Part shown: piece by piece, positions 21,488 through 47,482 of the stretch
How the letters are laid out: each line of letters starts with the position of its first letter
Numbering within the stretch: position 1 is the first letter of the stretch
From: a virus
Virus record (IMG/VR): IMGVR_UViG_3300026519_000009
Span: 12,607-76,606 of that record
Strand: one strand, 5' to 3'
DNA length: 64,000 bases
The notes under the pieces: model-generated
The model's input: the letters and a program-made list of their open reading frames with translations, nothing else
The model's database searches: none
What the model was told of the DNA's origin: nothing
Position numbers and translations under genes: made by a program

Positions 21488-21547
21488 TTGAAGCGACTAC
21501 CACCAAATCAGCAAGCTGAATTTGGAAGTGGTATTCCGGCAACTTGG
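21488..21547 (-). mobile_element. Mini hairpin element
   Basis: Minus strand CCAAGTTGCCGGAATACCACTTCCAAATTCAGCTTGCTGATTTGGTGGTAGTCGCTTCAA. Confidence 0.88.
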
Positions 21548-21552
21548 GTATT

Positions 21553-23094
21553 CTATCTGTGCCAACGTGGATTCCTTGCAATAGGAACACCACGTTCTAC
21601 ACGTCCTACATTCGCATCGTTATAATTATGTTCACTGGAACCCATGTGACTATTGCCAGAATCAAGGTCCGTGGCCGATGCTAGTGTCATTGTCCTTGCC
21701 CATGGTTCATGTTCAGGAACACGGCTGGTTAACCATGCTTCAAGTGTTTCACTGGCGGACATACTGGCCGTTGCAGGTGTTGCGGGTGGGCCATTCAAAT
21801 GTATAGAGGTGCCCGTTACGATCACATCCGCTGCCGCTAATATATTGGTGGTAGCACCCGATTGTAAATTCAACATACCGCCACTCGCGGTAAGATGTAT
21901 ATCGGCAGTGGCCGTTAAAAATAAGTTGGGCATTGATATTCCCATATCACCAATTGAATCAATATTTGTTGACCCATTTGAACGAATATTTAGATTCCCA
22001 CTAGAATGTATTCGCATTTCGCCCTCAGTTGCCAAATGAATACCTTCTTTTGCAGTAACCCTAAATGCGCTGCCTGCCGTAAAATTTATATCCTTCTCGG
22101 CGTGCATCGAAATATTTCCTGCACCATACATATCAATATTTCCATTTTCGTCCATTTCAATCCAAGTGTTACCACCGGCTGTACTAATGTATATCCTTTC
22201 ATTAGTATCATCCATTATTATTTGATGACCATGTGTTGAACGTACACGAATTCTACAATTATCCGCATTATCAGACATTGAATATGAATGGAAGCCAGGT
22301 GTTGTCCAAGAATATACCTGTGGATCGTATACAAATTCGGTGGCACTAGATGCAAGCCCTTCTTGCACCCGACTTCTATTGTATCCCTGAGTGTTATTTA
22401 ATATATTTCCATCTTCTTCAGTGAAGTCAACTTCCTGATCATCTGCAACGCTGGTATAAATAACATCATTATTCGCAATATAAACTGCTGATAATCCAGC
22501 AACACCAACATCGGCACCTCGTGTTCTATATTCAAAATTCTTTCTAGGTGTTGGGATTGCTTGGCCGGTAACTGATTCATATTTTGTGAACGCATTGGTT
22601 TGGCTTGAATACAATGGTTGGATAGGGTCATCCGTTGAACTTAGTGGGCCGGTAGGTTCTTCGTTAGAAGCAGCTGTTTTATTATAAGTATATCGTCCAT
22701 GTGGCATTGTATGTGGAAGAAATTGATCATGCATTGCACCAAGATATATACGAAACCGTGGATCTGCATCAATACACCCCACCAACACGGTTGCCCCCAC
22801 TTTCGGAACATTGAACATACCATAGGCGACCGGGCCAAATGTTCTATCGTCACCACGACCACGACTGGCGGATTCATTAATTCCTGCTAATGGTGAAATT
22901 GGTGTTGCCCAAGGTATATCCTCAACCACAGTATTATTTAGATCACCAAATCGTGGACATGCTACGCGAATCCTACCCATTTGCTGTGGGTCATTTGTAT
23001 CCACGACCTCACCCAATGTTAAGTGATCAAAATTACCATTAGTTGTATTTATTTCATCGAAAATAGACATTACGTTCTTCCAGCTACTGGCCAT
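21553..23094 (-). CDS. Baseplate hub/central spike protein (gp5/VgrG-like)
   Basis: OB-fold start GEVVDTNDPQQMGRIRV, TPGFH/THGHQIIMDD motifs, beta-helix repeats and C-terminal RVPEHEPW. Confidence 0.85.
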   Translation of the reverse strand: MASSWKNVMSIFDEINTTNGNFDHLTLGEVVDTNDPQQMGRIRVACPRFGDLNNTVVEDIPWATPISPLAGINESASRGRGDDRTFGPVAYGMFNVPKVGATVLVGCIDADPRFRIYLGAMHDQFLPHTMPHGRYTYNKTAASNEEPTGPLSSTDDPIQPLYSSQTNAFTKYESVTGQAIPTPRKNFEYRTRGADVGVAGLSAVYIANNDVIYTSVADDQEVDFTEEDGNILNNTQGYNRSRVQEGLASSATEFVYDPQVYSWTTPGFHSYSMSDNADNCRIRVRSTHGHQIIMDDTNERIYISTAGGNTWIEMDENGNIDMYGAGNISMHAEKDINFTAGSAFRVTAKEGIHLATEGEMRIHSSGNLNIRSNGSTNIDSIGDMGISMPNLFLTATADIHLTASGGMLNLQSGATTNILAAADVIVTGTSIHLNGPPATPATASMSASETLEAWLTSRVPEHEPWARTMTLASATDLDSGNSHMGSSEHNYNDANVGRVERGVPIARNPRWHR

Positions 23095-25067
23095 CGGACC
23101 GTACTTTTCTTAACATCACCTACAGCAACGGTTTCACTATTCTTTACATTACCGGAATTGGACAAGGTAAATAGACCGGTTATTTCACGATGCACCGCTG
23201 TTCGATTCTGATCCTTGTCAACTATAACGTCACTCGTGGTATCTGTGTGTTGTTCTAATTTATCTGATACAGGTAAGCTCATCAAATCCAACTCTTGTGT
23301 AAATTCACCATTATTGAATATTTGTTTTACCCCAAATAACGTATAAAATCCGGTATACCAAAAATCACGATATTCAGTATTAACATCATTTGTATCAACT
23401 GGCATTTTAATATTTATTTTAACCAACGTAGGTGTATTCAACCAACTTGGGTTAATTGTTTGACCATCCCGCACAGGCTCTGTTTCTTGTCGATCTAATT
23501 CACTAGGCAATACTTGCATTTCATTTAATAATTGTGGGTTGCCATAAATCACCATCTTAGCTTCAATAGTTTCCAATGCTGCGTGACGGTTTAATAATGC
23601 TTGAAACGATGCACTATCTATAGGATTTCGTGTATTTCTTGCCATTGGTTGTTCTATTTTTGAACCAAGAAACAATGGTGTTGCGCTTCTACGTGTTTGA
23701 CCATTTGATGCAACAACGGTTGAGCCAGTGGTTTTTACTTGATATGAACGATTTCCTTCTTTGGTTGTTTGTTGGGTGGGGATGGTATCTGTTGTTGCTG
23801 CAATTTGAAAAAAGGCCATTCCCATTTCCATTTTAATATCAAACGACTTTATATCTACATTATTACCAGTAAATATATAGTCAAACGTAATTGATTGGCC
23901 GGGCAATGGTTCGAATACCGCACCATTAAACGCGGCTTCGTATGGGAGCATTGTCATTGCATATCGTTTTATATGATATTCAACAATAAACTGCGTCGAT
24001 GTGGAGTTTAGTCCCGACGTTATTTTGTAAATAAATTTTGTTCCGTCCTCCCGACCCTTACCATCATTAATGACACCATTACAGCTTGCCATTATTCGTT
24101 TAATAATTTCTTCAACACCTACTTTCGGTCCAAAGTTAAATGCACCATCCGCATTGATATTACTTATCCGAACATGTTCATTGTCACCCGCACTATACAC
24201 CGCACCATCCGCATAGTCAGGTGCAAAAATACGGTATTCAACCGGACGATAGTTTGCATCAAAAAACTTAGTGGCGCTATCAACACTTTCCTGAGCTGTT
24301 AATGGATTTCCTTCAAGCACGGATGCGTCATATAGTGTTTTTGCAAACTCTATTTTAGCTTGTTCAAGATATGCAGAGTATGATGTATTTATTTTGGTGG
24401 CTAATGATGCAAACGTTTCCGCCAAGCTATCTGATTGACCAATCTTAAATGAAAACCCTTTAAATATTTGTTGCGTTTGCGGTAGTTTACCCATACCATT
24501 TGTTGCACCCACAAAACTCATTTTATATTTAGCACCAGATGTATCAAAAATCGCTGATATATCATAATTAATAAACAACAATGGTCTAATATTAGATATC
24601 ATTTCCGTAGTGCCCTGTGTAGTATGTCCTACAAAAACGGTTTTCAATACAAAAACCAAACCAACCGGATCAGTGTTCAACTCATCGCACGCATTCGTAA
24701 GGACGTTCAGGAAGTTTGCGCCAAGTGGTTCTATAATATCAAGTTCACCATCTAATGCCATTGAAGTCGATTGTGGAATATTACCGTATCCTATAAAGTT
24801 TTCCATGGCAATAATATTTTCCCACGTAGCAGCGGTAATATAAAATCTAGCATCGGTCATTCCATCAATTAAAGTAATATATCGATTCTCGGTGCTGGTG
24901 CCGGTTGGACGGGAAGCGTAACGCGCACGATCACTTGGCTGTTGAAATACAACAATTTCACTAGTATTTGCCAGCTCTTCCGCAGCAGTACTATTATTAC
25001 ACACTAAAAGAATGTGATGATAGGAATATGATCTAAATTGCCCAAGTATATTTCGTGGTGTTGACAT
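23070..25067 (-). CDS. Baseplate hub protein (gp27-like)
   Basis: Immediately upstream of the gp5-like gene; C-terminal GNP...TGFY...F..GEFTQEL motif typical of hub proteins. Confidence 0.65.
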   Translation of the reverse strand: MSTPRNILGQFRSYSYHHILLVCNNSTAAEELANTSEIVVFQQPSDRARYASRPTGTSTENRYITLIDGMTDARFYITAATWENIIAMENFIGYGNIPQSTSMALDGELDIIEPLGANFLNVLTNACDELNTDPVGLVFVLKTVFVGHTTQGTTEMISNIRPLLFINYDISAIFDTSGAKYKMSFVGATNGMGKLPQTQQIFKGFSFKIGQSDSLAETFASLATKINTSYSAYLEQAKIEFAKTLYDASVLEGNPLTAQESVDSATKFFDANYRPVEYRIFAPDYADGAVYSAGDNEHVRISNINADGAFNFGPKVGVEEIIKRIMASCNGVINDGKGREDGTKFIYKITSGLNSTSTQFIVEYHIKRYAMTMLPYEAAFNGAVFEPLPGQSITFDYIFTGNNVDIKSFDIKMEMGMAFFQIAATTDTIPTQQTTKEGNRSYQVKTTGSTVVASNGQTRRSATPLFLGSKIEQPMARNTRNPIDSASFQALLNRHAALETIEAKMVIYGNPQLLNEMQVLPSELDRQETEPVRDGQTINPSWLNTPTLVKINIKMPVDTNDVNTEYRDFWYTGFYTLFGVKQIFNNGEFTQELDLMSLPVSDKLEQHTDTTSDVIVDKDQNRTAVHREITGLFTLSNSGNVKNSETVAVGDVKKSTVRWPVAGRT

Positions 25068-25105
25068 GTATTAATTATTCCAATTATTATTATTATTATT
25101 ATTAT

Positions 25106-25166
25106 CCAAGTTGCCGGAATACTACTTCCAAATTCAACAAGCTGTATTTGGAAGTAGTCGCCTCAC
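25106..25166 (+). mobile_element. Mini hairpin element
   Basis: TTAT|CCAAGTTGCCGGAATACTACTTCCAAATTCAACAAGCTGTATTTGGAAGTAGTCGCCTCA; compensatory CTAC/GTAG stem. Confidence 0.88.
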
Positions 25167-25180
25167 GTATACTAATATGA

Positions 25181-25540
25181 TTAAACTACGTTATTTCCAC
25201 CTTCCGATTTGGTAATTATATCCAATATTAATCTTGACTGTGTTGGAAGTCTGATAGCAACACCCGCTACTAATTCGGTTACCGGATCAACAATACTGTT
25301 ATATTGCAATACCAACCATGCAAATGTTGCCTTTCCATACACCCTATTTGAAATTAAATCGGGACGACCGGCTTCGTGTTCAAGAACAACAAGCAGGAAA
25401 TCATTTTCTTGTTGTGGTAGGGTACGTTTTTCCCACCATCCAAGTCTATTATTATAGATGTCCGTGGTTCCGCCCTGAACCAAACGTGAATTTCTATTTT
25501 CAACCGAGCTTGTACTAATGTTTTGAGTATTAAATGGCAT
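25181..25540 (-). CDS. Baseplate wedge protein (gp53/LysM-like)
   Basis: GRPDLISNRVYG...WLVLQYNSIVDP...G..IRLP motif. Confidence 0.8.
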   Translation of the reverse strand: MPFNTQNISTSSVENRNSRLVQGGTTDIYNNRLGWWEKRTLPQQENDFLLVVLEHEAGRPDLISNRVYGKATFAWLVLQYNSIVDPVTELVAGVAIRLPTQSRLILDIITKSEGGNNVV

Positions 25541-25542
25541 AA

Positions 25543-26265
25543 TTAAAATCCTTGTAGTCGGCCAGTTCTAAATGCGTCTAAATCAAATGATTCAAATGCA
25601 TCAGGACTGGGTGCTTCCAATAAACTAATATCAATATTCATTATAATTGGCATAGGCACGCCACTTGTTGTGGTAATATAATCAACATCATTTGGATATG
25701 GTATCGTAAGTTGTTGTATAACCACTGGAATCCGGTTAATATGCTGTGCTATTTGCCAAACATTGGTTGCCCCCGTGGTCGCACCAGTGGGTTCGGTTCC
25801 GATAGTTCTTGAATACGCACTTAGGTATAAAATAGCGGGTGGTGCCCCCAATAACTCACTACCTAAAAAGCTTGCACGTTCTTGTGGCGTTAAATCTAAA
25901 CTATCCAACTCATCCGCCGTAAAATTAGCTTCCCTTGCCGCACGCTGCTCACTATTTAATGTGGAGCTATTTCCAAATCTGGGCATACACCAACCACGAA
26001 GTCGCCATAATCTTCTTAAATTTCGATCCGCTTCTTCAATTGTTCTGGAAATTAACTTAATATCTGATAATTGAAAATTGCGGGAGGATGTATTTTTATA
26101 AACTTGTATTTGTCCCGGAGCATGTAATGGTTCAAGTGAATTATAATTCACATTTCTATTTTCAGAAACAACAGGACTTGCATCAAAACTAACGGTACCA
26201 CCACCGCTATTTGCATTTGTTAATTTTACACGATAAGGATTTGATATTCTGTTACGATCCGACAT
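25543..26265 (-). CDS. Baseplate/tail-tube initiator-like protein
   Basis: GAPPAILYLSAY and IPVVIQQLTIPYPNDVDYI...P..MNIDISLLE motifs; within the baseplate operon. Confidence 0.65.
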   Translation of the reverse strand: MSDRNRISNPYRVKLTNANSGGGTVSFDASPVVSENRNVNYNSLEPLHAPGQIQVYKNTSSRNFQLSDIKLISRTIEEADRNLRRLWRLRGWCMPRFGNSSTLNSEQRAAREANFTADELDSLDLTPQERASFLGSELLGAPPAILYLSAYSRTIGTEPTGATTGATNVWQIAQHINRIPVVIQQLTIPYPNDVDYITTTSGVPMPIIMNIDISLLEAPSPDAFESFDLDAFRTGRLQGF

Positions 26266-26305
26266 TTAGTATCCATTGATAATCATACATTGTATTGTTA
26301 TTTAT

Positions 26306-26751
26306 CCAATTTGCCGGAATACCACTTCCAAATTCAGCTTGGTGAATTTGGAAGTGGATGGATAGGCACCATTAGGACGATCTTGCACTTGTATATATTG
26401 CTTTAATATTTCAATTGGGGCAATAATTAAGTGAATTTAGTTCTTGAATTGATATTTAACTATGGTACACTGTTTATATGAAAAGAGCAATCATTCCCGA
26501 CAAAATAAAGCCATGAAGACTTTAAAAATTCGCGTCAATGACATCAAGCACACGGTTGCCAACAGTATTGAACCAAAGGGGGGGGTTGCGGTTGCCAACA
26601 GTCAATCGGGTGTTGATGGACACAAAACATAAATGATCAACAAAAATAGTAAGTGAAAACGAATTAGTGAAAACACCGAAGACATAATGAGCGACCATTG
26701 TGCGAATCCACGTTCAAGCGCAGATCGCTGATTTGGTGGTGGTCGCTTCAA
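26306..26751 (+). mobile_element. Internally deleted IS200/IS605-type element with tnpB fragments
   Basis: Full left end (hairpin then GGATGGATAGG), ATGAAGACTTTAAAAATTCGCGTC (MKTLKIRV, TnpB-like start), segments matching 47029-47078 and 47408-47448, and right end ...GGTGGTGGTCGCTTCAA. Confidence 0.85.
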
Positions 26752-27326
26752 TAGTTAACAATTCCTGCGTGATTTAGTGCTTTAACGAGTGATAGTAGGT
26801 GCTTACATACCCCAGGAACTTGTTTTGGATTAACCGGTCCCCTATTTGAACCTTGAACTTTTTGGTATGGTTTGGGTGCTCTTCCTATTAGGCTTTTATC
26901 CTTAGCATTGAAATAACTAAATCGGTAATAGAAATCTAAACAATTACATCTAACCCGGCATGTATGTGCCGTTAAATGTATTGCATTCATATTGTATTCT
27001 TCACCATCTTTTGCGGTGAACGTCACGTTGTCCGGTAAATTTTCGTTTGAAAATTCAACGTTATTGAATATAATTGAAGTGTTATAATTGGTACCATCGC
27101 TACTTGCGAGACCTATCACGTTTAAATTTTTGGTGCCTATAAATGGCAATAATTCCAATTTAACTATTCTAACCGGGTCGATTGCATTTTGGCGCTTTGC
27201 AGATACCGGGATAAAATTCAGCACATTTTGTTCTAAATCCGAAAATGTTGATTGTTCACATAAAACAAATTTATCAAGTTGATTGTGTATTCGTTGGCCA
27301 CGTATAAGGTAATGATCATTTTTCAT
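26748..27326 (-). CDS. SWIM-type zinc-finger protein
   Basis: CNCLDFYYRF...CKHL; start at ATG 27326, 5 nt after GATAAATA. Confidence 0.75.
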   Translation of the reverse strand: MKNDHYLIRGQRIHNQLDKFVLCEQSTFSDLEQNVLNFIPVSAKRQNAIDPVRIVKLELLPFIGTKNLNVIGLASSDGTNYNTSIIFNNVEFSNENLPDNVTFTAKDGEEYNMNAIHLTAHTCRVRCNCLDFYYRFSYFNAKDKSLIGRAPKPYQKVQGSNRGPVNPKQVPGVCKHLLSLVKALNHAGIVNY

Positions 27327-27338
27327 AGTGGTATTTAT

Positions 27339-27487
27339 CCAAGTTGTCATTAAAGCGGTTGCCAACGGTCGCCAACTGTGCAATCACTTTTCAATTTTCG
27401 GTGAAATTATTTTAAATTTTTAAAAATTAGTGGAACTTTTTTGAATATACAGCGTCTTTACTATTTTAACAACGTGTGTACGTTCAA
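27339..27487 (+). mobile_element. Degenerate IS605-type mini element interrupted by an IS607-like MITE
   Basis: TTTAT|CCAAGTTG at 27334-27346 and GTTCAA at 27482-27487 flank the nested unit. Confidence 0.5.
27357..27474 (+). mobile_element. 118-bp MITE of the IS607-like element
   Basis: Starts GGTTGCCAAC like the left end at 18766-18778; ends TTACTATTTTAACAACG, 17/17 identical to the reverse complement of 17758-17774. Confidence 0.75.
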
Positions 27488-27488
27488 A

Positions 27489-29087: not shown

Positions 29088-29114
29088 AATCGTATCCTTT
29101 TTTTAAATAAATTT

Positions 29115-31079
29115 TTACCCAAATACCCGCAATTCTTTAAACCTTCGTCGAATCAAGGTACCACCAGAACTAAATAAAATCGCTCGCGCGTTCGTTCCAT
29201 CCGATATAATAGTGTACATACGCTGTGAATGTGGGAGGTTTCCGGTCCCCGTGGCAGGGGGTGTGGATGAGACATTATTACCATCAAAAATTTTAGTCCA
29301 GGCACTATCTATAAATACTTCAAATATAACTTGACCATTTATCAAATCTTCGTTTACTACCTGATACATTCCAGCTGGAAATACGTATGTAGAGCCAGGG
29401 ACATTTGCTAATGTTCGTAAAGTATATACATTAGTAAAACTAAAACCACCAGCAATAAGATTATCAACATATTGCTTATTTGCAGCATCCGAATTATTAG
29501 TCGGTGTGTCCACGTTAACAATTTTAGCGTTTGTCATATCTAATTCACTATCAAATTGAACTGGCCCTGTAATTCTGGCATCGCCAACCACATGTAACTT
29601 ATTTCCTGGTGCCGGTGTTCCTATTCCAACGTCACCAGTCGTGGTTATTCTAAACTGTTCGGTTGCTACACCAGCACTTCCGGTTTCTATTACAAAGTCC
29701 CCATAATTTGCACGTAGTCGTAGTATATCGCCAAAATCATTGTGCTGTATAAGACTACGAGGTAGAACATTTCCAGCTTGATGGAATTGTATTGCAACAT
29801 TTCCATTCGAGTTATTGTTCTCTAGGCGCAATGCTTCACCATTGCCGCCCGCTAAGGTTAGGACGTGTAACTTTGCGGCTGGTGCTGTCACCCCCATTCC
29901 AATATCACCACTAGACGTTATAACTAGATTTTTATTACCATTTGTTGAAAAACTAAGTGTTTGTCCAAGGTCAAATTCAATTGAATTATCACCACCTGCG
30001 GAATTACCAAAGTTTATTAATCCGGTGGAAGGGTCGGTTAACGCATTAGTAGCCCGTATTGCGCCATTAATAGTAACTTCACCACTAGGCGCTATAAGTA
30101 GTTTTTCATTACCATTTGTTGAAAAACTAAGTGTTTGTCCAAGGTCAAATTCAATTGAATTATCACCACCTGCGGAATTACCAAAGTTTATTAATCCGGT
30201 GGAAGGGTCGGTTAACGCATTAGTAGCCCGTATTGCGCCATTAATAGTAACTTCACCGGTGGTCTCAAAAATATTTAGACGTATTTGATTATTTTTAACT
30301 ATATCGAAACTATTACTATTATTAATTATATAATCACTGGCACCTAACCCGAAATTAATTCGACCATCCCCACTATTGTTAACTGTCAGGTCATCATTGA
30401 TTGTAGTTGCACCATTCAATTCAGTATCACCAACTACTTCAAATGCTGTGGATGGTGATGGTTGATTAATTCCAACTGACCCATTACTTAACGCGGTTAG
30501 TACACTCCCCCCTGCACTTTGTAAATCAATAATAGCACCTGCCCCCTGTTGATTTACAATAAGCAATGTTCCCGGTTCATTCGCTTGCATAATATCAGCA
30601 ACATCGCTGCGTAAAAATTGAGTACTATCAAGGCCGTCCAACAACGTTGCATCACCACCAGTCGGAATTGACCATATATTACCTAATGAAAAGGTATAAG
30701 TAACATTTGCAGAAGTATTGAACCATTGTTGTCCAATAACAGGATTAGTTATTCCATTACCAAGACCAAGATCATTTTCATCTTTTGGAAGAACCGGATC
30801 GGTCACAGGGTCATAATCCATTAACATCGTAGCTGGATTATAATCACCGAAAACCTTTGCTGGGCAAGCATAATTCTCCAACAATCTGAATATATTTTGA
30901 TTTACGCCCTGTCCCCAACTTACAGTACCAAATCCATATAATGATAAGTCGGAATCCCGCGCAATCCCGCCTGCACCATTTAATTCACCAGAACCAATAG
31001 TAAATGATGATGAAGTACGATTTGCAACTGATTCTGAATCATCATATGCTGTATGTTTTATTAAATATGTTTCAGCCAT
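29115..31079 (-). CDS. Tail fibre-like protein
   Basis: LSLYGFG...QNIFRLLENYA...GQQWF head domain, DATLLDGLDSTQFLRSD, G.VGIG...P...LHV repeats and DAANKQYVD. Confidence 0.82.
   Translation of the reverse strand: MAETYLIKHTAYDDSESVANRTSSSFTIGSGELNGAGGIARDSDLSLYGFGTVSWGQGVNQNIFRLLENYACPAKVFGDYNPATMLMDYDPVTDPVLPKDENDLGLGNGITNPVIGQQWFNTSANVTYTFSLGNIWSIPTGGDATLLDGLDSTQFLRSDVADIMQANEPGTLLIVNQQGAGAIIDLQSAGGSVLTALSNGSVGINQPSPSTAFEVVGDTELNGATTINDDLTVNNSGDGRINFGLGASDYIINNSNSFDIVKNNQIRLNIFETTGEVTINGAIRATNALTDPSTGLINFGNSAGGDNSIEFDLGQTLSFSTNGNEKLLIAPSGEVTINGAIRATNALTDPSTGLINFGNSAGGDNSIEFDLGQTLSFSTNGNKNLVITSSGDIGMGVTAPAAKLHVLTLAGGNGEALRLENNNSNGNVAIQFHQAGNVLPRSLIQHNDFGDILRLRANYGDFVIETGSAGVATEQFRITTTGDVGIGTPAPGNKLHVVGDARITGPVQFDSELDMTNAKIVNVDTPTNNSDAANKQYVDNLIAGGFSFTNVYTLRTLANVPGSTYVFPAGMYQVVNEDLINGQVIFEVFIDSAWTKIFDGNNVSSTPPATGTGNLPHSQRMYTIISDGTNARAILFSSGGTLIRRRFKELRVFG
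29934..30257. repeat. Intragenic tandem duplication: 150 identical bp, 174-bp period
   Basis: 29934-30083 equals 30108-30257 (58-aa period). Confidence 0.92.
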
Positions 31080-31115
31080 GGTATCCTCGTGTTTATTGAT
31101 TATATTATTATTTAT

Positions 31116-31259
31116 CCAAGTTGCTGAAATACCATTTCCAAATCAACAAGCTGAATTTGGAAATGGATGGATAAGAAGAATTTTGGTTGGATTCCAATTG
31201 AAGCTACCATCACCAAATCGTCTCGCTCATTTGGTGATGGTCGCCAACAGTAGCTTCAA
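31116..31259 (+). mobile_element. Two-hairpin mini element (left end plus right end)
   Basis: TATTTAT|CCAAGTTGCTGAAATACCATTTCCAAAT...ATTTGGAAATGGATGGATAAG, then CCATCACCAAAT...ATTTGGTGATGGTCGC(CAACAGTA)GCTTCAA. Confidence 0.85.
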
Positions 31260-31283: not shown

Positions 31284-31952
31284 TTAATGTATTGTTGTTC
31301 CTTTTTTAACGAAAGGAACTGTCGTTATTGATTTATTATCAATATTTTCTTGTTCGGTCAATTTACTTGGGGGTGTATCATATAAGTTTGATAATATTTC
31401 ACGTATTTTACTGTCTTTCGAGGATGATTTACTATTCTCTTTAACCGGTTCTTTTACCTTCTTAACCGGTTCTTTTACCTTCTTAACCGGTTCTTTTACC
31501 TTCTTAACCGGTTCTTTTACCTTCTTAGCCGGTTCTTTTACCTTCTTAATCGGTTCCTTAATTGATTCGTTATCCGTCTTAATAGGTTCTTTAGCTTGGT
31601 TAATAGATTTATTGACATTGGATGGATTCAATACCAACTTCGGACGCGAAACATAAACATCATGCGTTCCTACCACATTAATATTTCCGTTCATTGGACA
31701 AAAATGGTATCCATCTACAATAATATCAATATGGAAGTTATATGTGGTAGTTTCCAGCATTTCTAATGGCGGAATTATTACTGTCCATGAACGCTTGCTA
31801 TTCTCGACTCGTTTACATTCAAATTTAAGGTCCATTTCGGAGGCTTCTATAACAAAATAAACACACATATCTTTCGTTTCGATATTAGTTATGTCTACTT
31901 CAAAATCCAAAATATTTTCTTTTACGTTTGAAATTGATATTAAATTATCCAT
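31284..31952 (-). CDS. Hypothetical protein with KKVKEPV repeats
   Basis: 222-aa ORF with a basic low-complexity repeat. Confidence 0.7.
   Translation of the reverse strand: MDNLISISNVKENILDFEVDITNIETKDMCVYFVIEASEMDLKFECKRVENSKRSWTVIIPPLEMLETTTYNFHIDIIVDGYHFCPMNGNINVVGTHDVYVSRPKLVLNPSNVNKSINQAKEPIKTDNESIKEPIKKVKEPAKKVKEPVKKVKEPVKKVKEPVKKVKEPVKENSKSSSKDSKIREILSNLYDTPPSKLTEQENIDNKSITTVPFVKKGTTIH
31441..31560. repeat. 21-bp tandem repeat (~5.5 copies)
   Basis: TTAACCGGTTCTTTTACCTTC units. Confidence 0.92.
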
Positions 31953-33079: not shown

Positions 33080-33117
33080 ATGTACAACATCCTATTAACT
33101 ATTATCTTATTATTTAT

Positions 33118-33160
33118 TCAAGTTACCGAAATACTACTACTGGTGGTTGGTCGTTTCGAA
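33118..33160 (+). mobile_element. Degenerate mini element (loop deleted)
   Basis: TATTTAT|TCAAGTTACCGAAATACTACTACTGGTGGTTGGTCGTTTCGAA. Confidence 0.65.
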
Positions 33161-33243
33161 CCGTTAATTTGACATTATATATCAATATCGCTTCAATCTT
33201 TTTTTTTATGTATGATAAATATACTAAACTAGGGAATATAATT

Positions 33244-34232: not shown

Positions 34233-34248
34233 TAATTAATTTTGTTAT

Positions 34249-34306
34249 CCAATTTGCTGAATCCACTTCCAATTTCAGCTTACTGATTTGGAAGTGATCG
34301 CTTCAA
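34249..34306 (+). mobile_element. Mini hairpin element overlapping the 3' end of ORF 34275-34724
   Basis: TTAT|CCAATTTGCTGAATCCACTTCCAATTTCAGCTTACTGATTTGGAAGTGATCGCTTCAA. Confidence 0.85.
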
Positions 34307-34724: not shown

Positions 34725-34743
34725 ATGCCTATAATATAGTTAT

Positions 34744-34804
34744 CCAAGTTGCCTGAATACTACTTCCAAAGTGGGCTAGCTGAATTTGGAAGCGGTCGCT
34801 TCAA
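34744..34804 (+). mobile_element. Mini hairpin element
   Basis: TTAT|CCAAGTTGCCTGAATACTACTTCCAAAGTGGGCTAGCTGAATTTGGAAGCGGTCGCTTCAA. Confidence 0.88.
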
Positions 34805-35232: not shown

Positions 35233-35267
35233 AATAGTGATCGTTCCAATATATTATAGATATTTAT

Positions 35268-35331
35268 CCAATTTGCCAAAATACCATCACCCAATTTTGC
35301 AAGCAGAATTTGGTGATGGCATTCGCGTCAA
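35268..35331 (+). mobile_element. Mini hairpin element
   Basis: TATTTAT|CCAATTTGCCAAAATACCATCACCCAATTTTGCAAGCAGAATTTGGTGATGGCATTCGCGTCAA. Confidence 0.8.
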
Positions 35332-37634: not shown

Positions 37635-37658
37635 TTTTTGAATTTACTGTTGGCAACC

Positions 37659-37718
37659 CTAAATTTCCGAAATGCCACTTCCAAATTTGGTTTGCTGAAT
37701 TGGAAGTGGTCGCGTCAT
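37659..37718 (+). mobile_element. Mini hairpin element
   Basis: CTAAATTTCCGAAATGCCACTTCCAAATTTGGTTTGCTGAATTGGAAGTGGTCGCGTCA, preceded by an IS607-like left-end motif (37646-37658, minus). Confidence 0.8.
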
Positions 37719-39160: not shown

Positions 39161-39172
39161 GTGTATATTTAT

Positions 39173-39236
39173 CCAAGTTGTCGGAATACCACCAAATTAG
39201 CAAGCTGAATTTTGAAGTGGTATTCTGGCAACTTGG
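39173..39236. mobile_element. Mini element, two left ends head-to-head
   Basis: TTTAT|CCAAGTTGTCGGAATACCAC...GTGGTATTCTGGCAACTTGG|ATAAA. Confidence 0.88.
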
Positions 39237-39242
39237 ATAAAA

Positions 39243-39276: not shown

Positions 39277-39300
39277 GGTTTAAACAACCACCGGTTGTCG

Positions 39301-39567: not shown

Positions 39568-39648
39568 TCTCCTAATATTATAATTATATATTCAACGCTT
39601 TATTTTACCACTGTATTGCTACAAATATCAATCTTTTTTTTTCATTTA

Positions 39649-40968: not shown

Positions 40969-40985
40969 TTTTTATTATTTTTTAT

Positions 40986-41044
40986 CCAAGTTGCTGGAAT
41001 ACCACTTCCAAATCGGCGATCTGATTTGAAACCGACCACTTCAA
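40986..41044 (+). mobile_element. Mini hairpin element
   Basis: TTTAT|CCAAGTTGCTGGAATACCACTTCCAAATCGGCGATCTGATTTGAAACCGACCACTTCAA. Confidence 0.82.
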
Positions 41045-41047
41045 TTT

Positions 41048-42055
41048 CTAAATATTTCGTATAGCGGGATATATAGTTTTTATAGCTGCCTCATCGATGA
41101 AAAATTCACCATTATCGTAAACCAGTGCAAATTGATTCATTGTTGGGGTTATATCAGTAACATCTACATATATACCGGTATCCTTATCTACCGTAGCAAA
41201 GGGTGGATTTGACATAAGCAACAACACCTCATTTTTCTCTATACTTCTGGTATTCGGCGGACTACCCGAACATTCGGTTATGGTATCATATGTAAACGTA
41301 GAACCATTACCAACAATATCATCTTGTATTGATTGATATATCCCTTGATAGCTCCGCACCGTATATATTTTACCCTTAATGACCACACTATCAAAATCAC
41401 TCCATGGTGATACCGAATTAAGCAAGGATTCGCTTACATTTGAATACAGGTGCTGTTCCGTATTTCCCGTTGCGGTAGTAAAGGATACCATTATTCCGAC
41501 ATTTGCGCAAGTGCCTATGGTAGGGACTCGCGTGGCGATAGTGATTTCGCCACCAATGGAAATTTGTCGGCGCGACCGTATGGAGGCTGATTCTATAGTA
41601 GTGGAAGATAATATATCGGGGGGGGACTGTCTAGCCACAAGCTGTGCAACCCCAGACCATTGACGATCAAATACCAACATAATATTATTTGAATCGACTA
41701 TTATGACATCTGTCGGTGATATTTCAACCATATTATTAATATCCGTTTCTGTTGGTATATTAACAAATACCGAAATTGCGGGCGTGGTACCAAGATTATG
41801 TGGAATAGTCCATGTGGAGCGTGCAATAACTTGTGTATGATCATATAAAACACGACGGGGAAGCCACTCGTCCAGTCCAAATACGGGGGTTGATACACCA
41901 GCTTGGGTAAAGTCGGACATTAAATCAATTTGATACAATGAACCACGACAACCATGCGTAATAGTACAACGATTTATATTTTCAATACCATCGATGATAC
42001 GAACGTATTCCTTTTCCCGTTTACACACATCGCATCTATATAAAACAACTGCCAT
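41048..42055 (-). CDS. Hypothetical, probably structural, protein with an N-terminal Cys cluster
   Basis: CDVC...C..THGC; WTIPHNLG fibre-type motif. Confidence 0.6.
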   Translation of the reverse strand: MAVVLYRCDVCKREKEYVRIIDGIENINRCTITHGCRGSLYQIDLMSDFTQAGVSTPVFGLDEWLPRRVLYDHTQVIARSTWTIPHNLGTTPAISVFVNIPTETDINNMVEISPTDVIIVDSNNIMLVFDRQWSGVAQLVARQSPPDILSSTTIESASIRSRRQISIGGEITIATRVPTIGTCANVGIMVSFTTATGNTEQHLYSNVSESLLNSVSPWSDFDSVVIKGKIYTVRSYQGIYQSIQDDIVGNGSTFTYDTITECSGSPPNTRSIEKNEVLLLMSNPPFATVDKDTGIYVDVTDITPTMNQFALVYDNGEFFIDEAAIKTIYPAIRNI

Positions 42056-42066
42056 ATTTCCCCCAA

Positions 42067-42369
42067 TTACGCCAATACAATATCGGACACTTGCTGTAAA
42101 TAAGCATCAATCATTGGCTGTGGAACTGTTGTTACTTCTGACATAATTGCGGTCTTTAACATTTTTACCGTAGTTTCCGTAGTAAACTCTGGATTATTTG
42201 CACTTACCATAAATGGTAACATGCCCAATGATACAGAACCATCTGGCGACTGCTGCATAACCAATACCCTAGCCCTTTCAAGCATATAGTAAGTACTATT
42301 ATCTTCTACGAGAGTTGCAATTACTTCTTCACCGCTGATTGTTTTAAGTGCCAATACTGTTGTTGTCAT
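42067..42369 (-). CDS. Sm-like phage protein
   Basis: LKTISGEEVIA...Y.QQVS.IVL pattern; AGGAG RBS. Confidence 0.7.
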   Translation of the reverse strand: MTTTVLALKTISGEEVIATLVEDNSTYYMLERARVLVMQQSPDGSVSLGMLPFMVSANNPEFTTETTVKMLKTAIMSEVTTVPQPMIDAYLQQVSDIVLA

Positions 42370-42410
42370 CCTTATCTCCTATTTATTATTATAAACATAT
42401 AATATCAATT

Positions 42411-42977
42411 CTAACTATTGGTTGTCAAGTGCGCATAGTTACTAATCGTGGTGACACGGAGCGCATAGTAATATGGTATCCCATATAATATTATTTCAGC
42501 ACCGCTGGATATTCCTTCGGATAGCTGTTCGGTTGAATAATTAAACCGCAATAAATCTTCAAATATCATCGTTCCGCTTGTTTCACCAAGCTTATTGAAT
42601 ATTGATTCAAATATTGGTTCGTAACAGTTGGTTGAATCGTTAACCGCCTTGCTGTACATATATCGAAACCCATTGGGTGGAAACACATAAAACAACTCAT
42701 TTTCATTTTCATAAATATCTTCCACCCCACCAATGGCAAATACTGCTCGTTCTCTCAGGTTATACAGTTGTTCCTTAAATACTGAATTAAAAACCTTACC
42801 GAATTTCGTCGTATTATTGTGCTTACGGACTTTGATTTTTTGAAAGTCATCGTGTGTATTGGGTAAGTACTTGAACAATGGCATACCATTTGCTTCCAAT
42901 AAAAACTGGGAACAATTGGTTTTGATTCGACGAATGTTGCTAATTTCGTTTATTTGTAATAATGGTTGTACGCGCAT
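42411..42977 (-). CDS. Hypothetical phage protein
   Basis: R...FA, Y.FPPNGF.Y.YS and EI motifs; follows GATAAATA. Confidence 0.6.
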   Translation of the reverse strand: MRVQPLLQINEISNIRRIKTNCSQFLLEANGMPLFKYLPNTHDDFQKIKVRKHNNTTKFGKVFNSVFKEQLYNLRERAVFAIGGVEDIYENENELFYVFPPNGFRYMYSKAVNDSTNCYEPIFESIFNKLGETSGTMIFEDLLRFNYSTEQLSEGISSGAEIILYGIPYYYALRVTTISNYAHLTTNS

Positions 42978-42990
42978 AAAACCTATTTAT

Positions 42991-43057
42991 CCAAGTTGCA
43001 GCAATACCACTTCCGATTTCAGCTTGCCGATTTGGAAATGGTATTGCTACAATTTGG
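42991..43057. mobile_element. Mini element, two left ends head-to-head
   Basis: TATTTAT|CCAAGTTGCAGCAATACCACTTCC...GGAAATGGTATTGCTACAATTTGG. Confidence 0.82.
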
Positions 43058-43098
43058 GTAACTAACAATAGTCAATCAAACACTAATCCAGACAACGA

Positions 43099-43560
43099 TC
43101 ACTTCCAACGCAACTCACCACCAATATTTTTGGGCATCCCATCTAAAGATTTAAGATGATTATTCATACACAAGAACGTTCCTCCCACTGAGGTCGGCGC
43201 ACCGTCTAATGTTATTAATTCATTATCATAGCAAAAAAAACTACCATTAACCTCATATGGTGAATATTCTAAGCTGGATAATAAGTTAAATGAACAATTA
43301 AAACCACCTTCTACTTCGTGCGGGCTACCTTTTAATGATGTCAATTTGTTACCTGAGCAGTTAAAATCACCATACACCGTTCGAAATTGCACTGGGATTT
43401 CGGTCAAATAACGATGACAAATGTTTACGTTACCATTTACGATAACACTACCGTTATCGCAAATAATATAGTTTTTTATTTTCATATTTTCAAGCCAGCG
43501 CATAATATCGCACACTGGCTTGAAATCCGTTCCGGAGGTATCAGGCATGTTCATCATCAT
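43099..43560 (-). CDS. Short LRR-like repeat protein (paralogue of 46252-46752)
   Basis: 22-aa repeats G.F.CS.N.L.SL.G.P..V. Confidence 0.8.
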   Translation of the reverse strand: MMMNMPDTSGTDFKPVCDIMRWLENMKIKNYIICDNGSVIVNGNVNICHRYLTEIPVQFRTVYGDFNCSGNKLTSLKGSPHEVEGGFNCSFNLLSSLEYSPYEVNGSFFCYDNELITLDGAPTSVGGTFLCMNNHLKSLDGMPKNIGGELRWK

Positions 43561-44542
43561 GCTCTTTCATTCCCCCAAAGTGTCTGGATTCTGTCACAGA
43601 TATATTATGCTTTTTGAAATATTTTCGAATATCAGCATGGTGTTTGGTAACAATGGTACTACCATGTTTACCCTTTACCTGCGTTGCCTTTCCGTTAACC
43701 AGCTCAATTGTTGCGATTGGGACCATTAGTTTATTCCGAGCACTGTAAATTTTTGCCTTGCCCTTTTCAATATCAGAACCATACGAAGCAACGCAATGTT
43801 TCATTAATGTACCTTCGACCTTAGCACTCTCCCGTGTCAGTAATTTTACAACTGTTATTGTTTCAAAATCATCATCTTCAACCGTAAAGTCTTTGCCTTC
43901 AACCAAGTTATCTATCATTTCTTGTGCCAGCGCAGCGTCAACTATTTCGGATTGTTGCACCGTGTATTCGTGCCATGCTATTGACCGCTTTAGCGCTTCC
44001 GGGAAATGTAGTTTTGATATATCACGAACTTGAAAGGCTAATGGACAAATAACACTTTCCTCATATCCCGCCTGTGCGTTTGCTAATAAAAAATCATGCA
44101 CGTTACTGATGACATTTGTTAGTTTTAATATTCTGAACATTCGTCCTGCTGAAAACACAACAACATCATCAATCGCTTCTTGTGCAAATTCAGGAAATAA
44201 TGCCAAAGCGGTTTGCATTGAAATGTTGTTGCTTTTTGTTGAAACTAATGTGGTCAGATATTCCTTTAATGGGACAAAAAACATTTCTTGAAATTTTTCA
44301 GGGTTCATCATGTCATTCGTGATATCAATTGCACCACGTCTGACCCAATTATAAAAATTGTGTTTAAACCAATATCGTACATCATCAGTTGTTCGAGAAT
44401 TACAAATTTTATTGTCAATAAAGCGTTCTATAATATGTTGACACGTATTGATATGGTCGATTTCAATGCCATCGTTATTTGCTATTGTGATTTTTACATT
44501 ACCAGAATTGACAATATTCGGACATTTTTTCATAGCTTTCAT
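43541..44542 (-). CDS. PcfJ-like domain protein
   Basis: C-terminal EG..MKHCVASY...IYS.R...ATIE...Q.KG. Confidence 0.75.
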   Translation of the reverse strand: MKAMKKCPNIVNSGNVKITIANNDGIEIDHINTCQHIIERFIDNKICNSRTTDDVRYWFKHNFYNWVRRGAIDITNDMMNPEKFQEMFFVPLKEYLTTLVSTKSNNISMQTALALFPEFAQEAIDDVVVFSAGRMFRILKLTNVISNVHDFLLANAQAGYEESVICPLAFQVRDISKLHFPEALKRSIAWHEYTVQQSEIVDAALAQEMIDNLVEGKDFTVEDDDFETITVVKLLTRESAKVEGTLMKHCVASYGSDIEKGKAKIYSARNKLMVPIATIELVNGKATQVKGKHGSTIVTKHHADIRKYFKKHNISVTESRHFGGMKEHDDEHA

Positions 44543-44571
44543 AGATACATTCCATAAGTAGTTGAATTAAA

Positions 44572-44913
44572 TTGAAGTGACCACCATCAAATCAGCGAGC
44601 TGTGTTTGGTGGTGGATTCGCACAACGGTCGCCCATTGTGTTTTCTGCATTTCCACAGACCCCTGCTAGTAGCGCTTGGTTTCCCAAGCTGAGAATGTTC
44701 GTTGCTACATTTACATTGCAATCATGCATTGTTTCACACCCGGAGCATGTACATTCTCTTATTCCAAGACCTGAACTACCTTACTGATAATAACATAGTT
44801 AAATGTCAAGTCAAGAATTAAATTCACTTAATCATTGTGTGTTTAATATGTTGCCTGTCCAACCACCATCAAATCAGCACGATGATTTGATGGTGGTTGG
44901 ACAGGCAACTTGG
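44572..44913 (-). mobile_element. IS200/IS605-type element reduced to left end, promoter, tnpB 3' tail and right end
   Basis: Minus-strand 44572-44780 aligns by eye with 47280-47482; left end TATTTAT|CCAAGTTGCCTGTCCAACCACCATCAAAT. Confidence 0.88.
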
Positions 44914-45274
44914 ATAAATATTCAATAACAGCCTCTTCGTCTATTGTTAGTGATCCACTTGCATTGGCGCGGCGCAACGTAGTTTCAAAGGTCATTATCA
45001 TTTCTTTTGAGTTTATATATTCTAATATGATTTCACACGCGGCGCGTGTGAAATCATATTGTGAATTGTCCTCATCATGTTTGTAGTCAATTGCCAACGC
45101 CGCCATAAACATGATATTTTGTACCACTGGCACCGTGGTTGGCATTAAAGTGAACCATCCAGGATCATTTTTAATAAAATTGGTGTATAAAATTTTATCA
45201 TCATCCGTTAATGGCACGCAGCTTGACATTTGTTTAACAAATCGTTCTTCATATGTTTTTTGCAATGCAGTCAT
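44843..45274 (-). CDS. Hypothetical protein whose C-terminus is encoded by the element left end
   Basis: Last ~23 codons (SKLPVQPPSNH...) lie inside the element. Confidence 0.6.
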   Translation of the reverse strand: MTALQKTYEERFVKQMSSCVPLTDDDKILYTNFIKNDPGWFTLMPTTVPVVQNIMFMAALAIDYKHDEDNSQYDFTRAACEIILEYINSKEMIMTFETTLRRANASGSLTIDEEAVIEYLSKLPVQPPSNHRADLMVVGQATY

Positions 45275-45393
45275 ATTATATCCGATAGTTGCATTTTGAA
45301 TATGAATATATTGTAAACTATTACAATATATTATTCAATGGTTTTGGACTATATATTTCACTTGTTCTACTAGATTCCAATAAAATCCATTAT

Positions 45394-45453
45394 CCAAGTT
45401 GCCGAAATACCACTACCAAATCAGCAAGCTGAATTTGGAAATGGTCGCTTCAA
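45394..45453 (+). mobile_element. Mini hairpin element (near consensus)
   Basis: TTAT|CCAAGTTGCCGAAATACCACTACCAAATCAGCAAGCTGAATTTGGAAATGGTCGCTTCAA. Confidence 0.9.
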
Positions 45454-45463
45454 TATGTCAATA

Positions 45464-46240
45464 TTAATGTTTTGGTTGCCAACGTTCTAAATACTGCCCG
45501 ATATCGAATAACACCGAATTTACATTGTGAAATAACCAACTGTTGTTATTGGGTTGGCGTGACCCATGTTGGTCTAATGCACCGAACACGGCTGTGCTTT
45601 GTTCAGCATCCCATATATACCATTGCACTATTTCTAGGTTCCGTTCGGTTATTATTTTATGTAGTTCAGTCTGACCGGTTTTATGAATAAAGACCCCTAT
45701 TATATTGGGCGAACTAGATTTCATTCTATATAAAATGAATATGGGCGTGATTTCCTTAGCCGCGTTGATTTTAGATTGCACGGTTTTGCCCAAAAAACCG
45801 GGCCAACCACCATTTTTCGTAAAATCACGATAGCCACGAATTGGATTTCTTGGTATCCCTTCGGGTATGTTACCCTTGTCAAATTCTATTTTGAATTCTT
45901 CGATTGTTTTTAGGCCAAGTTTATGTATTAAGGCCACCGCATCCCAATATGGCATTCGCTTGGCGCGTGTAACCGCGTGTGGCGCGTCCGCTGAGAATAT
46001 GTTGTTGGTATCTAAAAACGTATTCCAGTTATCCCATTCTATATAAACCTCACTTGGATTTGCAGGCATTCCACCCGGTTTATAGTTACGTATCCATGTC
46101 CGGTATTGGCGGTATGATTTAATGCCTACCCGTCTTGCATATTGCGCAGCAAGGTCATATGGCATCCACCTCCAGTCTTTTGGTTTGCTATTTTCCAATG
46201 CTTTGGGAAGATATGTGCGTGATTTGCGTTTTTTAACCAT
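45464..46240 (-). CDS. Protein with two phage integrase-repeat-like units
   Basis: Two M-P-Y..A......G.K[ST]..[EQ][YF].....P..P...Y....W..FL units. Confidence 0.65.
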   Translation of the reverse strand: MVKKRKSRTYLPKALENSKPKDWRWMPYDLAAQYARRVGIKSYRQYRTWIRNYKPGGMPANPSEVYIEWDNWNTFLDTNNIFSADAPHAVTRAKRMPYWDAVALIHKLGLKTIEEFKIEFDKGNIPEGIPRNPIRGYRDFTKNGGWPGFLGKTVQSKINAAKEITPIFILYRMKSSSPNIIGVFIHKTGQTELHKIITERNLEIVQWYIWDAEQSTAVFGALDQHGSRQPNNNSWLFHNVNSVLFDIGQYLERWQPKH

Positions 46241-46251
46241 ATAATTACCAA

Positions 46252-46752
46252 CTAATTGTTGTGTGAATTAATGAACAGTCCGCCAATAATTGTGGTTGCG
46301 CGATGTGATTGTGGTAGTATATTAAATGAACAGTCAAAATCACCATCAATTTCTTGTGGTGATCCTGTCAACGATCTTAGGTTATTAGCATATACATGAA
46401 AAAACTTTCCGACTTCGGATGGACCGCCAACTAATGAAGATATCATATTCATAGAACAATCAAAGCCACCAGCAACTTCCTTCGGCGCACCTAATAATGA
46501 GTTCAGTTCGTTAAATGAACAATCAAAATCGCCACCGACTTCACGCGGTGAACCTTTTAGTGTGGTCAAGCTATTATTTGAGCAATTAAAATTACCATAA
46601 ACAATTCGGAACTGTACTGGTATTTCGACTAATCCTTTAAAATCTAAATAAACATCACCTTTCACCGTTACCGTACTTGTATCATTAATAGTATAATTTA
46701 TAATACCCATTTCATCAAGCCATCTTATAATTTCTTTTTTATTAGTCATCAT
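46252..46752 (-). CDS. Short LRR-like repeat protein
   Basis: Same repeats and EIPVQFR.VYG.FNCS motif as 43099-43560. Confidence 0.8.
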   Translation of the reverse strand: MMTNKKEIIRWLDEMGIINYTINDTSTVTVKGDVYLDFKGLVEIPVQFRIVYGNFNCSNNSLTTLKGSPREVGGDFDCSFNELNSLLGAPKEVAGGFDCSMNMISSLVGGPSEVGKFFHVYANNLRSLTGSPQEIDGDFDCSFNILPQSHRATTIIGGLFINSHNN

Positions 46753-46764
46753 ATTGATATTTAT

Positions 46765-47482
46765 CCAAGTTGCCGAAATACCACTTCCAAATTCACGTGG
46801 TCGGTGGTATCTTTCGGTTCAAGTACTTGTTGACAAACAAGTATCAACTGGCACCGGACATATAGGAATTGACTTGGGGTTAAAGACCATTGCTACGTGT
46901 TCAAATGGCGAAATATTAGAACGTAAGGAATATTATCGTAAATCCGAAAGCAAGTTGGGCATTGCCCAACTTGCAAAAAAGAAACGCCAAGTAAAAACAA
47001 TTCATGCGAAAATCAAGAACCAACGGATGGACACAAATCATAAATGGTCAACCAAGATAGTAAAAGAAAAACGAATTAATAGCGATTGGTAATGTTAGTG
47101 CGTCTAAATTAGCAAAGACTAAGATGGCTAAATCCGTATTAGACGCAGGTTGGTATCAACTAAAGAACATGCTCGATTATAAATCGAAAGCGATGCGATG
47201 CATGTTTGTTGAAGTCAACGAATCGTACACCACCCAGACCTGTTCGTCGTGTCAGGAAATAACTGAAACGAGTCCGAAAGGTAGGACAGGTCTTGGAATA
47301 AGGGAATGGACGTGTTCCGGGTGTGGCACATTGCATGATCGTCATATCAATGCAGCAACGAACATTCTCCGCTTGGGAAGTCAAGCGCTCGATGGAGGAG
47401 TCTGTGGAAACACAGAAGACACAATGGGTGACCATTATGCGAATCCACTTCCAAATCAAAGATTTGGAAGTGGTCGCTTCAA
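46765..47482 (+). mobile_element. IS200/IS605-family element remnant (longest copy)
   Basis: TTTAT|CCAAGTTGCCGAAATACCACTTCCAAATTC left end, then tnpB remnant, then right end GCGAATCCACTTCCAAATCAAAGATTTGGAAGTGGTCGCTTCAA. Confidence 0.92.
46795..47400 (+). pseudogene. tnpB: tnpB pseudogene (5' truncated, frameshifted)
   Basis: RGRWY...GIDLGLK (RuvC-I); frameshift near 47070; then AKSVLDAGW...VNESYTTQTCSSC...WTCSGCGTLHDRHINAA (RuvC-III Asp changed to His). Confidence 0.9.

Follow-up and report, generated by a model that had tools for sequence, protein, structure and literature searches.

Single-hairpin repeats in a hydrothermal-vent phage genome as probable decay products of an IS608-type insertion sequence

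The window analysed here, a 64,000-nucleotide (nt) stretch that spans bases 12607-76606 of the 76.6-kb IMG/VR viral record IMGVR_UViG_3300026519_000009 (judged 24% complete), carries a dispersed family of hairpin repeats, including ~60-nt elements with a single stem that we refer to as minis. These repeats probably represent a decay series of one insertion sequence (IS) of the IS608 type, within the IS200/IS605 family, in a hydrothermal-vent jumbo-phage lineage. The family is present far above chance: the stem motif CCACTTCCAAATTCA has 25 matches at ≤3 mismatches where 2.6 are expected, and GAATACCAC has 35 matches at ≤1 mismatch where 16.7 are expected. Repeat and hairpin scans place ~30 family loci in the record, nearly all of them between open reading frames (ORFs), and the density in the phage genome is ~1 element per 3 kb. 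Within this one 76-kb record, the sizes of the copies run through 722, 665, 450, 436, 346, 148, ~60 and 24 nt.

Anatomy of the repeats and their guide code

One kind of hairpin is surrounded by four types of flank, designated L5, L3, R5 and R3 for the 5′ and 3′ flanks that belong to the left end and to the right end. L5 consists of TTAT, the element border and CCAAGTTGCCGGAATA running into the hairpin, and L3 is the ATGGATAGGCACC that leads out of it, while R5 ends in GACCATTGTGCGAAT ahead of the hairpin and R3 is the TCGCTTCAA that extends from the hairpin to the right border. Long copies, all internally deleted to between 722 and 129 nt, have the order L5-hairpin-L3 ... R5-hairpin-R3 with remnants of tnpA and tnpB inside. 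The copy at 26302 retains an intact left end, GGAATA-hairpin-ATGGATAGG, together with a right end, GCGAAT-hairpin-TCGCTTCAA, in which the 5′ arm has decayed; in the copy at 46761 the 5′ arm of the left-end hairpin is joined to the middle of tnpB, and the right end, GCGAAT-hairpin-TCGCTTCAA, is intact. Minis have the order L5-hairpin-R3, that is, TTAT, CCAAGTTGCCGGAATA, one hairpin and TCGCTTCAA up to the border. In addition, three palindromes carry L5 on both sides of the hairpin (L5-hairpin-L5′, termed LL; 11023, 39169 and 42987), others carry R3 on both sides (R3′-hairpin-R3, termed RR; 50595 and, partly, 31207), and a hybrid L5-hairpin-R5′ lies at -4188, negative coordinates being positions upstream of the window start.

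The stem CCAC(TT/CA)CCAAAT is common to the left and right ends, and intact ends have DNA fold z-scores of -6 to -7.6. DNA folding also pairs GCGA with TCGC in free right ends, leaving AT bulged. Stem positions 5-6 covary (TT/TT 21, CA/CA 17, mixed 9), a pattern that would indicate either that pairing has been maintained or that the two arms homogenize each other. We note that in the minus-strand long copy the internal loop at the left guide has become fully complementary (TGTCCAA/TTGGACA), giving a perfect 27-bp stem at 44850-44909, an example of a quasi-palindrome being perfected. Between positions 15000 and 47000, where every gene is encoded on the minus strand and the GC skew is negative, 11 elements lie on the plus strand and 3 on the minus strand.

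In IS608, the guide/cleavage pairs GAAT/TCAA and AAAG/TTAC have been confirmed (PMC5934647). At its right end, the network joins guide base 1 to C-3, guide base 2 to T-4 and guide base 4 to A-1 and leaves A-2 unpaired; the two bases 3′ of the hairpin foot engage guide bases 1 and 2 in triplets, and mutation of this AT abolished complex formation (PMC3201880). Applied as cleavage site = complement(G2), complement(G1), N, complement(G4), this rule reproduces TTAC for AAAG and TCAA for GAAT, and yields TTAT for AATA. The last pair had been proposed in a preliminary description of the window, and it agrees with the searches anchored on the flanks, from whose queries the tetranucleotides were left out: TTAT precedes 37 of the 45 left-flank cores against a background of 1%, and TCAA follows 25 of the 34 right-flank anchors. 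GAAT is flush with the hairpin, directly abutting CCAC, in all ten true right ends, and AT stands directly 3′ of the left-end hairpin, as in IS608. The individual sites to which the preliminary description had pointed are likewise present, with GAAT before the right-end hairpin in TGCGAATCCAC at 26701-26711 and 47438-47448 (and as the complement at 44612-44622), and AATA before the left-end hairpin in GAAATACCAC at 46775-46784. At the level of sequence, the IS608 pairing rule thus fits both ends, and the reading of TTAT by AATA is well supported. The guide variants AATG and AAGA occur in decayed copies, and their covariation with the flanks was uninformative. The 5′ flanks often read TATTTAT, longer than the bare TTAT (for example at 26295-26305, 31105-31115 and 46754-46764), which may reflect either a preference for a target of more than four bases or a motif of the phage's intergenic regions.

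Parent transposon in a sister phage

Sister contigs were reached in sample 3300026519 (Ga0256839) by means of the exact left-flank pattern, a scan that returned additional copies in Ga0256839 only. One of them, G001, encodes an intact 159-aa TnpA of the Y1 type, with the HUH motif and the catalytic Tyr (Pfam Y1_Tnp, 136.8 bits), whose best relative of solved structure in the PDB is the IS608 TnpA (E 7e-22). The gene (L021:1420-1899, minus strand; G001:49915-50361) is directed at the left end, and its reading frame continues across L3 and the hairpin into L5; a divergent tnpB start lies on its other side. The layout of the parent is accordingly left end, leftward tnpA, rightward tnpB and right end. 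This left end, TTATCCAAGTTGCCGGAATA-CCACTTCC, is identical to that in the window, and since it reads GGAATA, the sequence GAATA was already part of the master copy. The stop codon of tnpA, TAA, is the complement of the TTAT target, such that the element borrows its stop codon from the insertion site.

The family has the features of the IS608 type, namely a Y1 TnpA (in G001), similar subterminal hairpins lacking terminal inverted repeats, insertion 3′ of a fixed tetranucleotide, a conserved right-end tetranucleotide and agreement with the guide rule. No Y1 transposase was detected in the 76.6-kb record of the window itself, which is 24% complete. In a search of 185,579 species genomes the best TnpA matches reached ≤54% identity, and neither a host nor a named IS was assigned. 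A scan of viral contigs for the right-end motif returned 12 loci, of which those outside sample 3300026519 are chance matches within genes; none of the records that hold these chance matches contains a TnpA. The window also encodes, at 17798-18697 on the minus strand, a 299-aa ORF with matches to HTH_OrfB_IS605, OrfB_IS605 and the TNB zinc ribbon, which marks its product as TnpB-like but short. In G001 and G002, contigs whose remaining similarity to the window is almost confined to IS sequence, a portion of it (17742-17970) recurs at 91-93% identity; the ORF could belong to another mobile element or represent a TnpB that has been domesticated.

The ribonucleotide reductase, DnaB-like helicase, baseplate-spike-like protein and 3,674-aa ORF encoded in the window identify it as a fragment of a jumbo phage, and its best DNA match among public runs is a hydrothermal-vent metagenome. 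The giant ORF (2-11026, plus strand) is open at the window start and thus at least 3,674 aa long. Contigs of an independent run, X2, are ~96% identical to the window and contain most of the repeat elements. Furthermore, a contig from another sample, 3300023368, is orthologous to window positions 57823-62314 (L005:1-4466; 88% identity over 4.5 kb), so that the phage lineage is present in more than one sample. G001 and related contigs have little DNA in common with the window besides the IS, indicating that the IS has spread among different phages. Megablast of 25 kb of the window gave no match to GenBank phages, and relatives of the DnaB-like helicase, at ≤52% identity in viral contigs and with none in metagenome contigs, are too distant for a comparison of empty sites.

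Origin and mobility of the single-hairpin forms

We infer that the minis arose by deletion. The two subterminal hairpins of a copy are near-identical and thus direct repeats; as each is itself palindromic, they are inverted repeats as well. Repeat-mediated deletion between neighbouring hairpins, by replication slippage or recombination, would then leave one hairpin with the two outer flanks. Joining the left and right ends of one copy in this manner would yield the ~60-nt mini, whereas a tail-to-tail pair of elements would yield the LL form, a head-to-head pair the RR form, and a plus-strand left end with a minus-strand right end the hybrid at -4188. The GAATA at the foot of a mini accordingly comes with the 5′ flank of the left end and finishes in AATA, the left guide for TTAT. 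Minis thus retain the left cleavage site, the left guide, a predicted TnpA-binding hairpin and the right cleavage site, and lack the right guide in its native register as well as the AT that follows the left-end hairpin.

Several lines of evidence argue for recurrent deletion in place. Among 26 minis, the loop is of the left-end type GCTTGC in ~14, of the right-end types GCTCGC or GATCGC in ~6, and of the short right-end type CTTTG in one (L038), while the right flank occurs in two variants, TCGCTTCAA and ATTCGC-TCAA; together, these loop types and flank variants require at least three independent fusions. The LL, RR and L5-hairpin-R5′ forms, in which both sides end exactly at TTAT or TCAA, are immobile as units and therefore measure how frequently hairpin-to-hairpin deletion occurs; there are ~6 of them in this record compared with ~12 minis. 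An uncollapsed tail-to-tail pair is present at L038:6118-6226. Related strains differ in their deletions: in X2, 137 nt of tnpB 3′ sequence in the copy at 44572 are replaced by 34 nt of the tnpB start, such that the two versions represent two different deletions of one ancestral insertion. In the orthologous contig L005, the left flank at 62292 has a form closer to the consensus, and a gap at 59108 lacks L5 and most of the hairpin. The preliminary description had named independent in-situ deletion among the outcomes that would overturn its proposal of one stem serving as both ends, and the size series, the fusion types, the strain-differing deletions and the flank combinations attainable only by deletion largely bear out that outcome. 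Short-sided joints between distant hairpins in mapped contigs were disregarded as cross-mapping of repeats. Inversion or template switching was considered for the LL and RR forms and dropped, given the exact TTAT or TCAA on both sides and the tail-to-tail precursor; mismatched stems (TT/TG) were likewise dropped as a sign of left-right chimeras, because some true left ends are equally imperfect.

The preliminary description had instead placed weight on GAATA as a feature of minis in which the guides GAAT and AATA overlap, with long-copy left ends reading AATA only. GGAATAC or TGAATAC does precede the stem at 25117, 34755, 39184, 40997 and 59123, as well as at 21528-21536 on the minus strand. 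Of the six elements listed as minis, however, two are something else: 39173 is palindromic, with a left-end flank at either side and TCAA missing, and 59112 has no right-end flank. The proposed contrast with long copies does not hold, since both the long copy at 26302 and the left end in G001 read GGAATA-CCAC, and 46775, the sole left-end example on which the contrast was based, is an A variant. Across 178 kb of family-bearing related contigs, which supplied the base counts, the position preceding AATA (-5) is G in 16 and A in 8 minis, compared with 7 G and 5 A in true left ends (Fisher p = 0.72). Thus, minis do not conserve the G more strongly than ordinary left ends do. Two minis (45390 and -5906) read GAAATA, and GAATA is the left end's own sequence rather than an adaptation of minis. 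The L5 and R5 flanks, CCAAGTTGCCGGAATA and CCATTGTGC-GAAT, are apparently homologous, and the GAAT within L5 may be a vestige of this homology that the final A has moved one base away from the foot. The G/A alternation before AATA is read as a neutral polymorphism, possibly such a vestige too.

A refined form of the earlier proposal holds that a single hairpin acts as both ends through a one-base register switch: with the CCAC foot, AATA reads TTAT, whereas an extra A:T pair brings GAAT flush with the stem, where it reads TCAA. GAAT lies one base away from the CCAC foot in minis and is flush in right ends, and in minis only, DNA folding allows the last A of the left flank to pair with the first T of R3, which would close this gap; the extra pair was folded in three of the four minis tested. 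This A is also guide base 4 in the reading of TTAT, and it cannot hold that position while paired within the stem. Both tetranucleotides obey the IS608 rule, most minis retain TTAT and TCAA, an intact TnpA exists in a sister phage, and mobility is suspected for the 52-bp terminal-only PATEs of Haloquadratum (PMC3119063). However, the bases 3′ of the foot are TC in minis as opposed to AT in left ends, and a change of this AT abolished the IS608 complex (PMC3201880); moreover, TnpA is an obligate dimer that synapses two hairpins (PMC3201880, PMC5934647). No circle-type junction, TCAA-CCAAG, was found in the 178 kb of contigs, the sole mini with a presence/absence polymorphism reads GAAATA, and the G is not enriched in minis; no evidence emerged for one stem serving as both ends. 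We consider a register switch unlikely, and the dual-guide idea, while possible, unsupported.

The condition of the minis in the window also bears on their mobility. Their mean pairwise identity is ~75%, and each has at least one defect by the criteria of IS608, namely an altered guide, a disrupted arm or the loss of TTAT or TCAA. They are old and for the most part defective, they recur in related strains, and we infer that most copies in the window are immobile relics, a state that also weighs against the register switch. The polymorphic mini (45394-45453) is 89% identical to its nearest sampled relative. In X2 it is missing, with the left border exactly after TTAT and, at the right, 7 nt replaced by 19 others. 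Loss from X2 is no less likely than acquisition in the window; as the mini reads GAAATA, any acquisition would have occurred without GAAT.

Four observations nevertheless weigh against a history of decay alone. The exact left border after TTAT, where this mini is absent from X2, is one of them. In addition, sister contigs hold fully intact minis (for example L040:3598, with TTAT, GGAATA, a perfect stem and TCAA), identity between minis at separate sites reaches 97%, consistent with recent spread, and minis outnumber long copies by ~26 to 10. A one-time founder and repeated formation would give the same mini, and the majority class could descend from one founder. Trans-mobilization of minis may still occur somewhere in this phage community. 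That the 60-nt single-hairpin element is a complete trans-mobilizable transposon, with the foot adenine toggling between guide base 4 and stem base, we regard as quite improbable.

Equally doubtful is a trans-guide reaction, in which a TnpA dimer would hold a mini hairpin, with AATA/TTAT in cis, together with the right end of another copy that supplies GAAT/TCAA in trans. Such a reaction would mirror the established trans recognition of target DNA by the left guide at IS608 integration (PMC5934647), and right ends with GAAT are plentiful in the same genomes, in which the minis keep TCAA. It is nevertheless purely inferential and has no described precedent; unless the chemistry were tightly coordinated, the mini would be linked to the helper's flank at strand transfer, and the copies in question are old and decayed. 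Least plausible is that the phage itself keeps the hairpins for a use to which the transposon features are irrelevant, for example in ending transcripts, stabilizing RNA, regulation or recombination. Although the elements are almost all intergenic, show the 11:3 split of orientations in the 15-47 kb block, covary at stem positions 5-6 and are in several cases retained in strains at 96% and 88% identity, many stems are broken (one folds no better than shuffles), no T-run follows them, decay differs between related strains, palindrome arms can stay matched without function, and Rfam gave no match. A tRNA scan returned nothing either. The decay series of an IS608-type element thus remains the reading that we favour.

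Feature map and relation to known elements

The copies located in the window are listed in Table 1.

Table 1. Members of the repeat family in the window, in order of position
Position	Strand	Feature
11023-11096		LL palindrome, one hairpin between two left-end 5′ flanks; degenerate, guide AATG
14702-14765	-	Single-hairpin mini, decayed; guide region GGGCGA, TCAA retained
21488-21551	-	Single-hairpin mini; GGAATA, TCAA retained, ATAC in place of TTAT; 97% identity to L038 mini
25102-25166	+	Single-hairpin mini; TTAT, GGAATA, stem perfect, right end mutated to TCAC
26302-26751	+	Internally deleted long copy, 450 nt; remnants of tnpA 3′ and tnpB 5′/3′
31112-31259	+	Two-hairpin 148-nt copy; left-end hairpin and second hairpin with inverted right-end flanks; intermediate decay stage
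33114-33195	+	Decayed element; borders TTAT...TCAA retained, hairpin destroyed
34245-34306	+	Mini; left flank shortened, GAAT flush with stem, no AATA
34740-34804	+	Mini; TTAT, TGAATA, TCAA; 3 stem mismatches, folding no better than shuffles
35264-35331	+	Mini; AAAATA, variant right flank ATTCGC-GTCAA as in right end -8922; independent fusion type
37655-37718	+	Degenerate mini; without TTAT, guide AATG, right end TCAT
39169-39240		LL palindrome; TTAT and left flank on both strands, no TCAA
40982-41044	+	Mini; TTAT, GGAATA, TCAA; right-end-type loop (GATC), 3′ arm decayed
42987-43061		LL palindrome; GCAATA on both arms
44572-44917	-	Long copy, 346 nt; right end GCGAAT
45390-45453	+	Mini; GAAATA (no GAAT)
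46761-47482	+	Long copy, 722 nt; two tnpB fragments (OrfB_IS605, TNB)
50258-50281	-	Solo left-flank (L5) remnant, no hairpin
50595-50658		RR palindrome; one hairpin between two right-end 3′ flanks (TTGAAG...CTTCAA)
55238-55261	-	24-nt scar; CCAAGTTG, GTGGTGG and TCGATTCAA, hairpin deleted
57462-57516	-	Left flank and hairpin; other side weakly right-end-5′-like
59108-59162	+	Left flank (TGAATA) and hairpin, no right-end flank
62292-62345	+	Left flank and unrelated hairpin; left flank also in orthologous L005 (88% identity)

The window holds further repeats within ORFs. The ORF at 31284-31952 contains 21-nt tandem repeats (31420-31613), and in the ORF at 29115-31079 a 174-nt stretch is duplicated in tandem at 29905-30252, with 97% identity. 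A 63-nt periodic repeat is present at 46322-46598 and 43286-43373 in two neighbouring minus-strand ORFs, and many metagenome contigs stop or diverge at 46518-46559, which suggests a hypervariable repeat protein.

The architecture of the minis is of a known kind, that of the terminal-only PATE, here at unusual density in a phage. In Haloquadratum walsbyi, repeat-mediated core deletion between near-terminal palindromes gives rise to 52-bp terminal-only PATEs, described by Dyall-Smith et al. (2011) as forms of HqIRS46 and ISHwa23; these are numerous and some are strain-specific, and their mobilization is suspected, although unproven (PMC3119063). The phage elements share with them the IS605-type origin, the fusion of both ends around a single near-terminal palindrome, the existence of two-palindrome relatives and the evidence for repeat-mediated core deletion. 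They differ in residing in a bacteriophage, in their density, in their IS608-like transposase and in the LL, RR and mixed forms that accompany them; the question of guide register, raised here, was not raised for the Haloquadratum PATEs. The copies at 26302, 44572 and 46761, which have both ends and tnpB remnants but no transposase, are of the same kind as the two-hairpin PATEs and gene-less derivatives of Geobacillus ISGst and Halanaerobium (PMC10055086, PMC7290912), whereas most copies in the window have gone one step further, to a single hairpin.

Compared with IS608 of Helicobacter pylori, the phage element shares the right pair GAAT/TCAA, the pairing rule, the AT after the left hairpin, insertion 3′ of a tetranucleotide without duplication, and the closest TnpA of solved structure. 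In contrast to IS608, its left pair is AATA/TTAT instead of AAAG/TTAC, with T as guide base 3, its tnpA diverges from tnpB and runs on through the left end, its spacings measure 16 and 9 nt where IS608 has 19 and 10, and the GCGA/TCGC flanks of its right end can pair in free DNA. A single hairpin with a conserved 5′ tetranucleotide is also reminiscent of the REP and BIME sequences served by RAYT (TnpA-REP), and REPs can be cleaved either 5′ or 3′ of the hairpin (PMC3333891). The suggestion that the minis are intermediates towards REPs is, however, unsupported, given a cognate transposase that is closest to that of IS608, conserved 5′ bases that read AATA, and the lack of a RAYT gene and of a GTAG-type motif; the cleavage sites are the TTAT and TCAA of the IS ends.

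Were the dual-guide idea true, the toggling adenine would connect, at the level of mechanism, the two-ended IS200/IS605 elements with REP-like repeats of one hairpin and would be of real interest, but the comparative data do not favour it. AATA/TTAT is a further natural combination of guide and target in keeping with the IS608 code, and deletion between any two hairpins would explain every odd flank combination observed. All decay stages of a single-strand transposon, from copies with gene remnants to a 24-nt scar, are found within 76 kb of one virus genome, and the apparently intact TnpA of the sister phage provides a named cognate enzyme that is relevant to the question of whether fused-end, one-palindrome PATEs still move.

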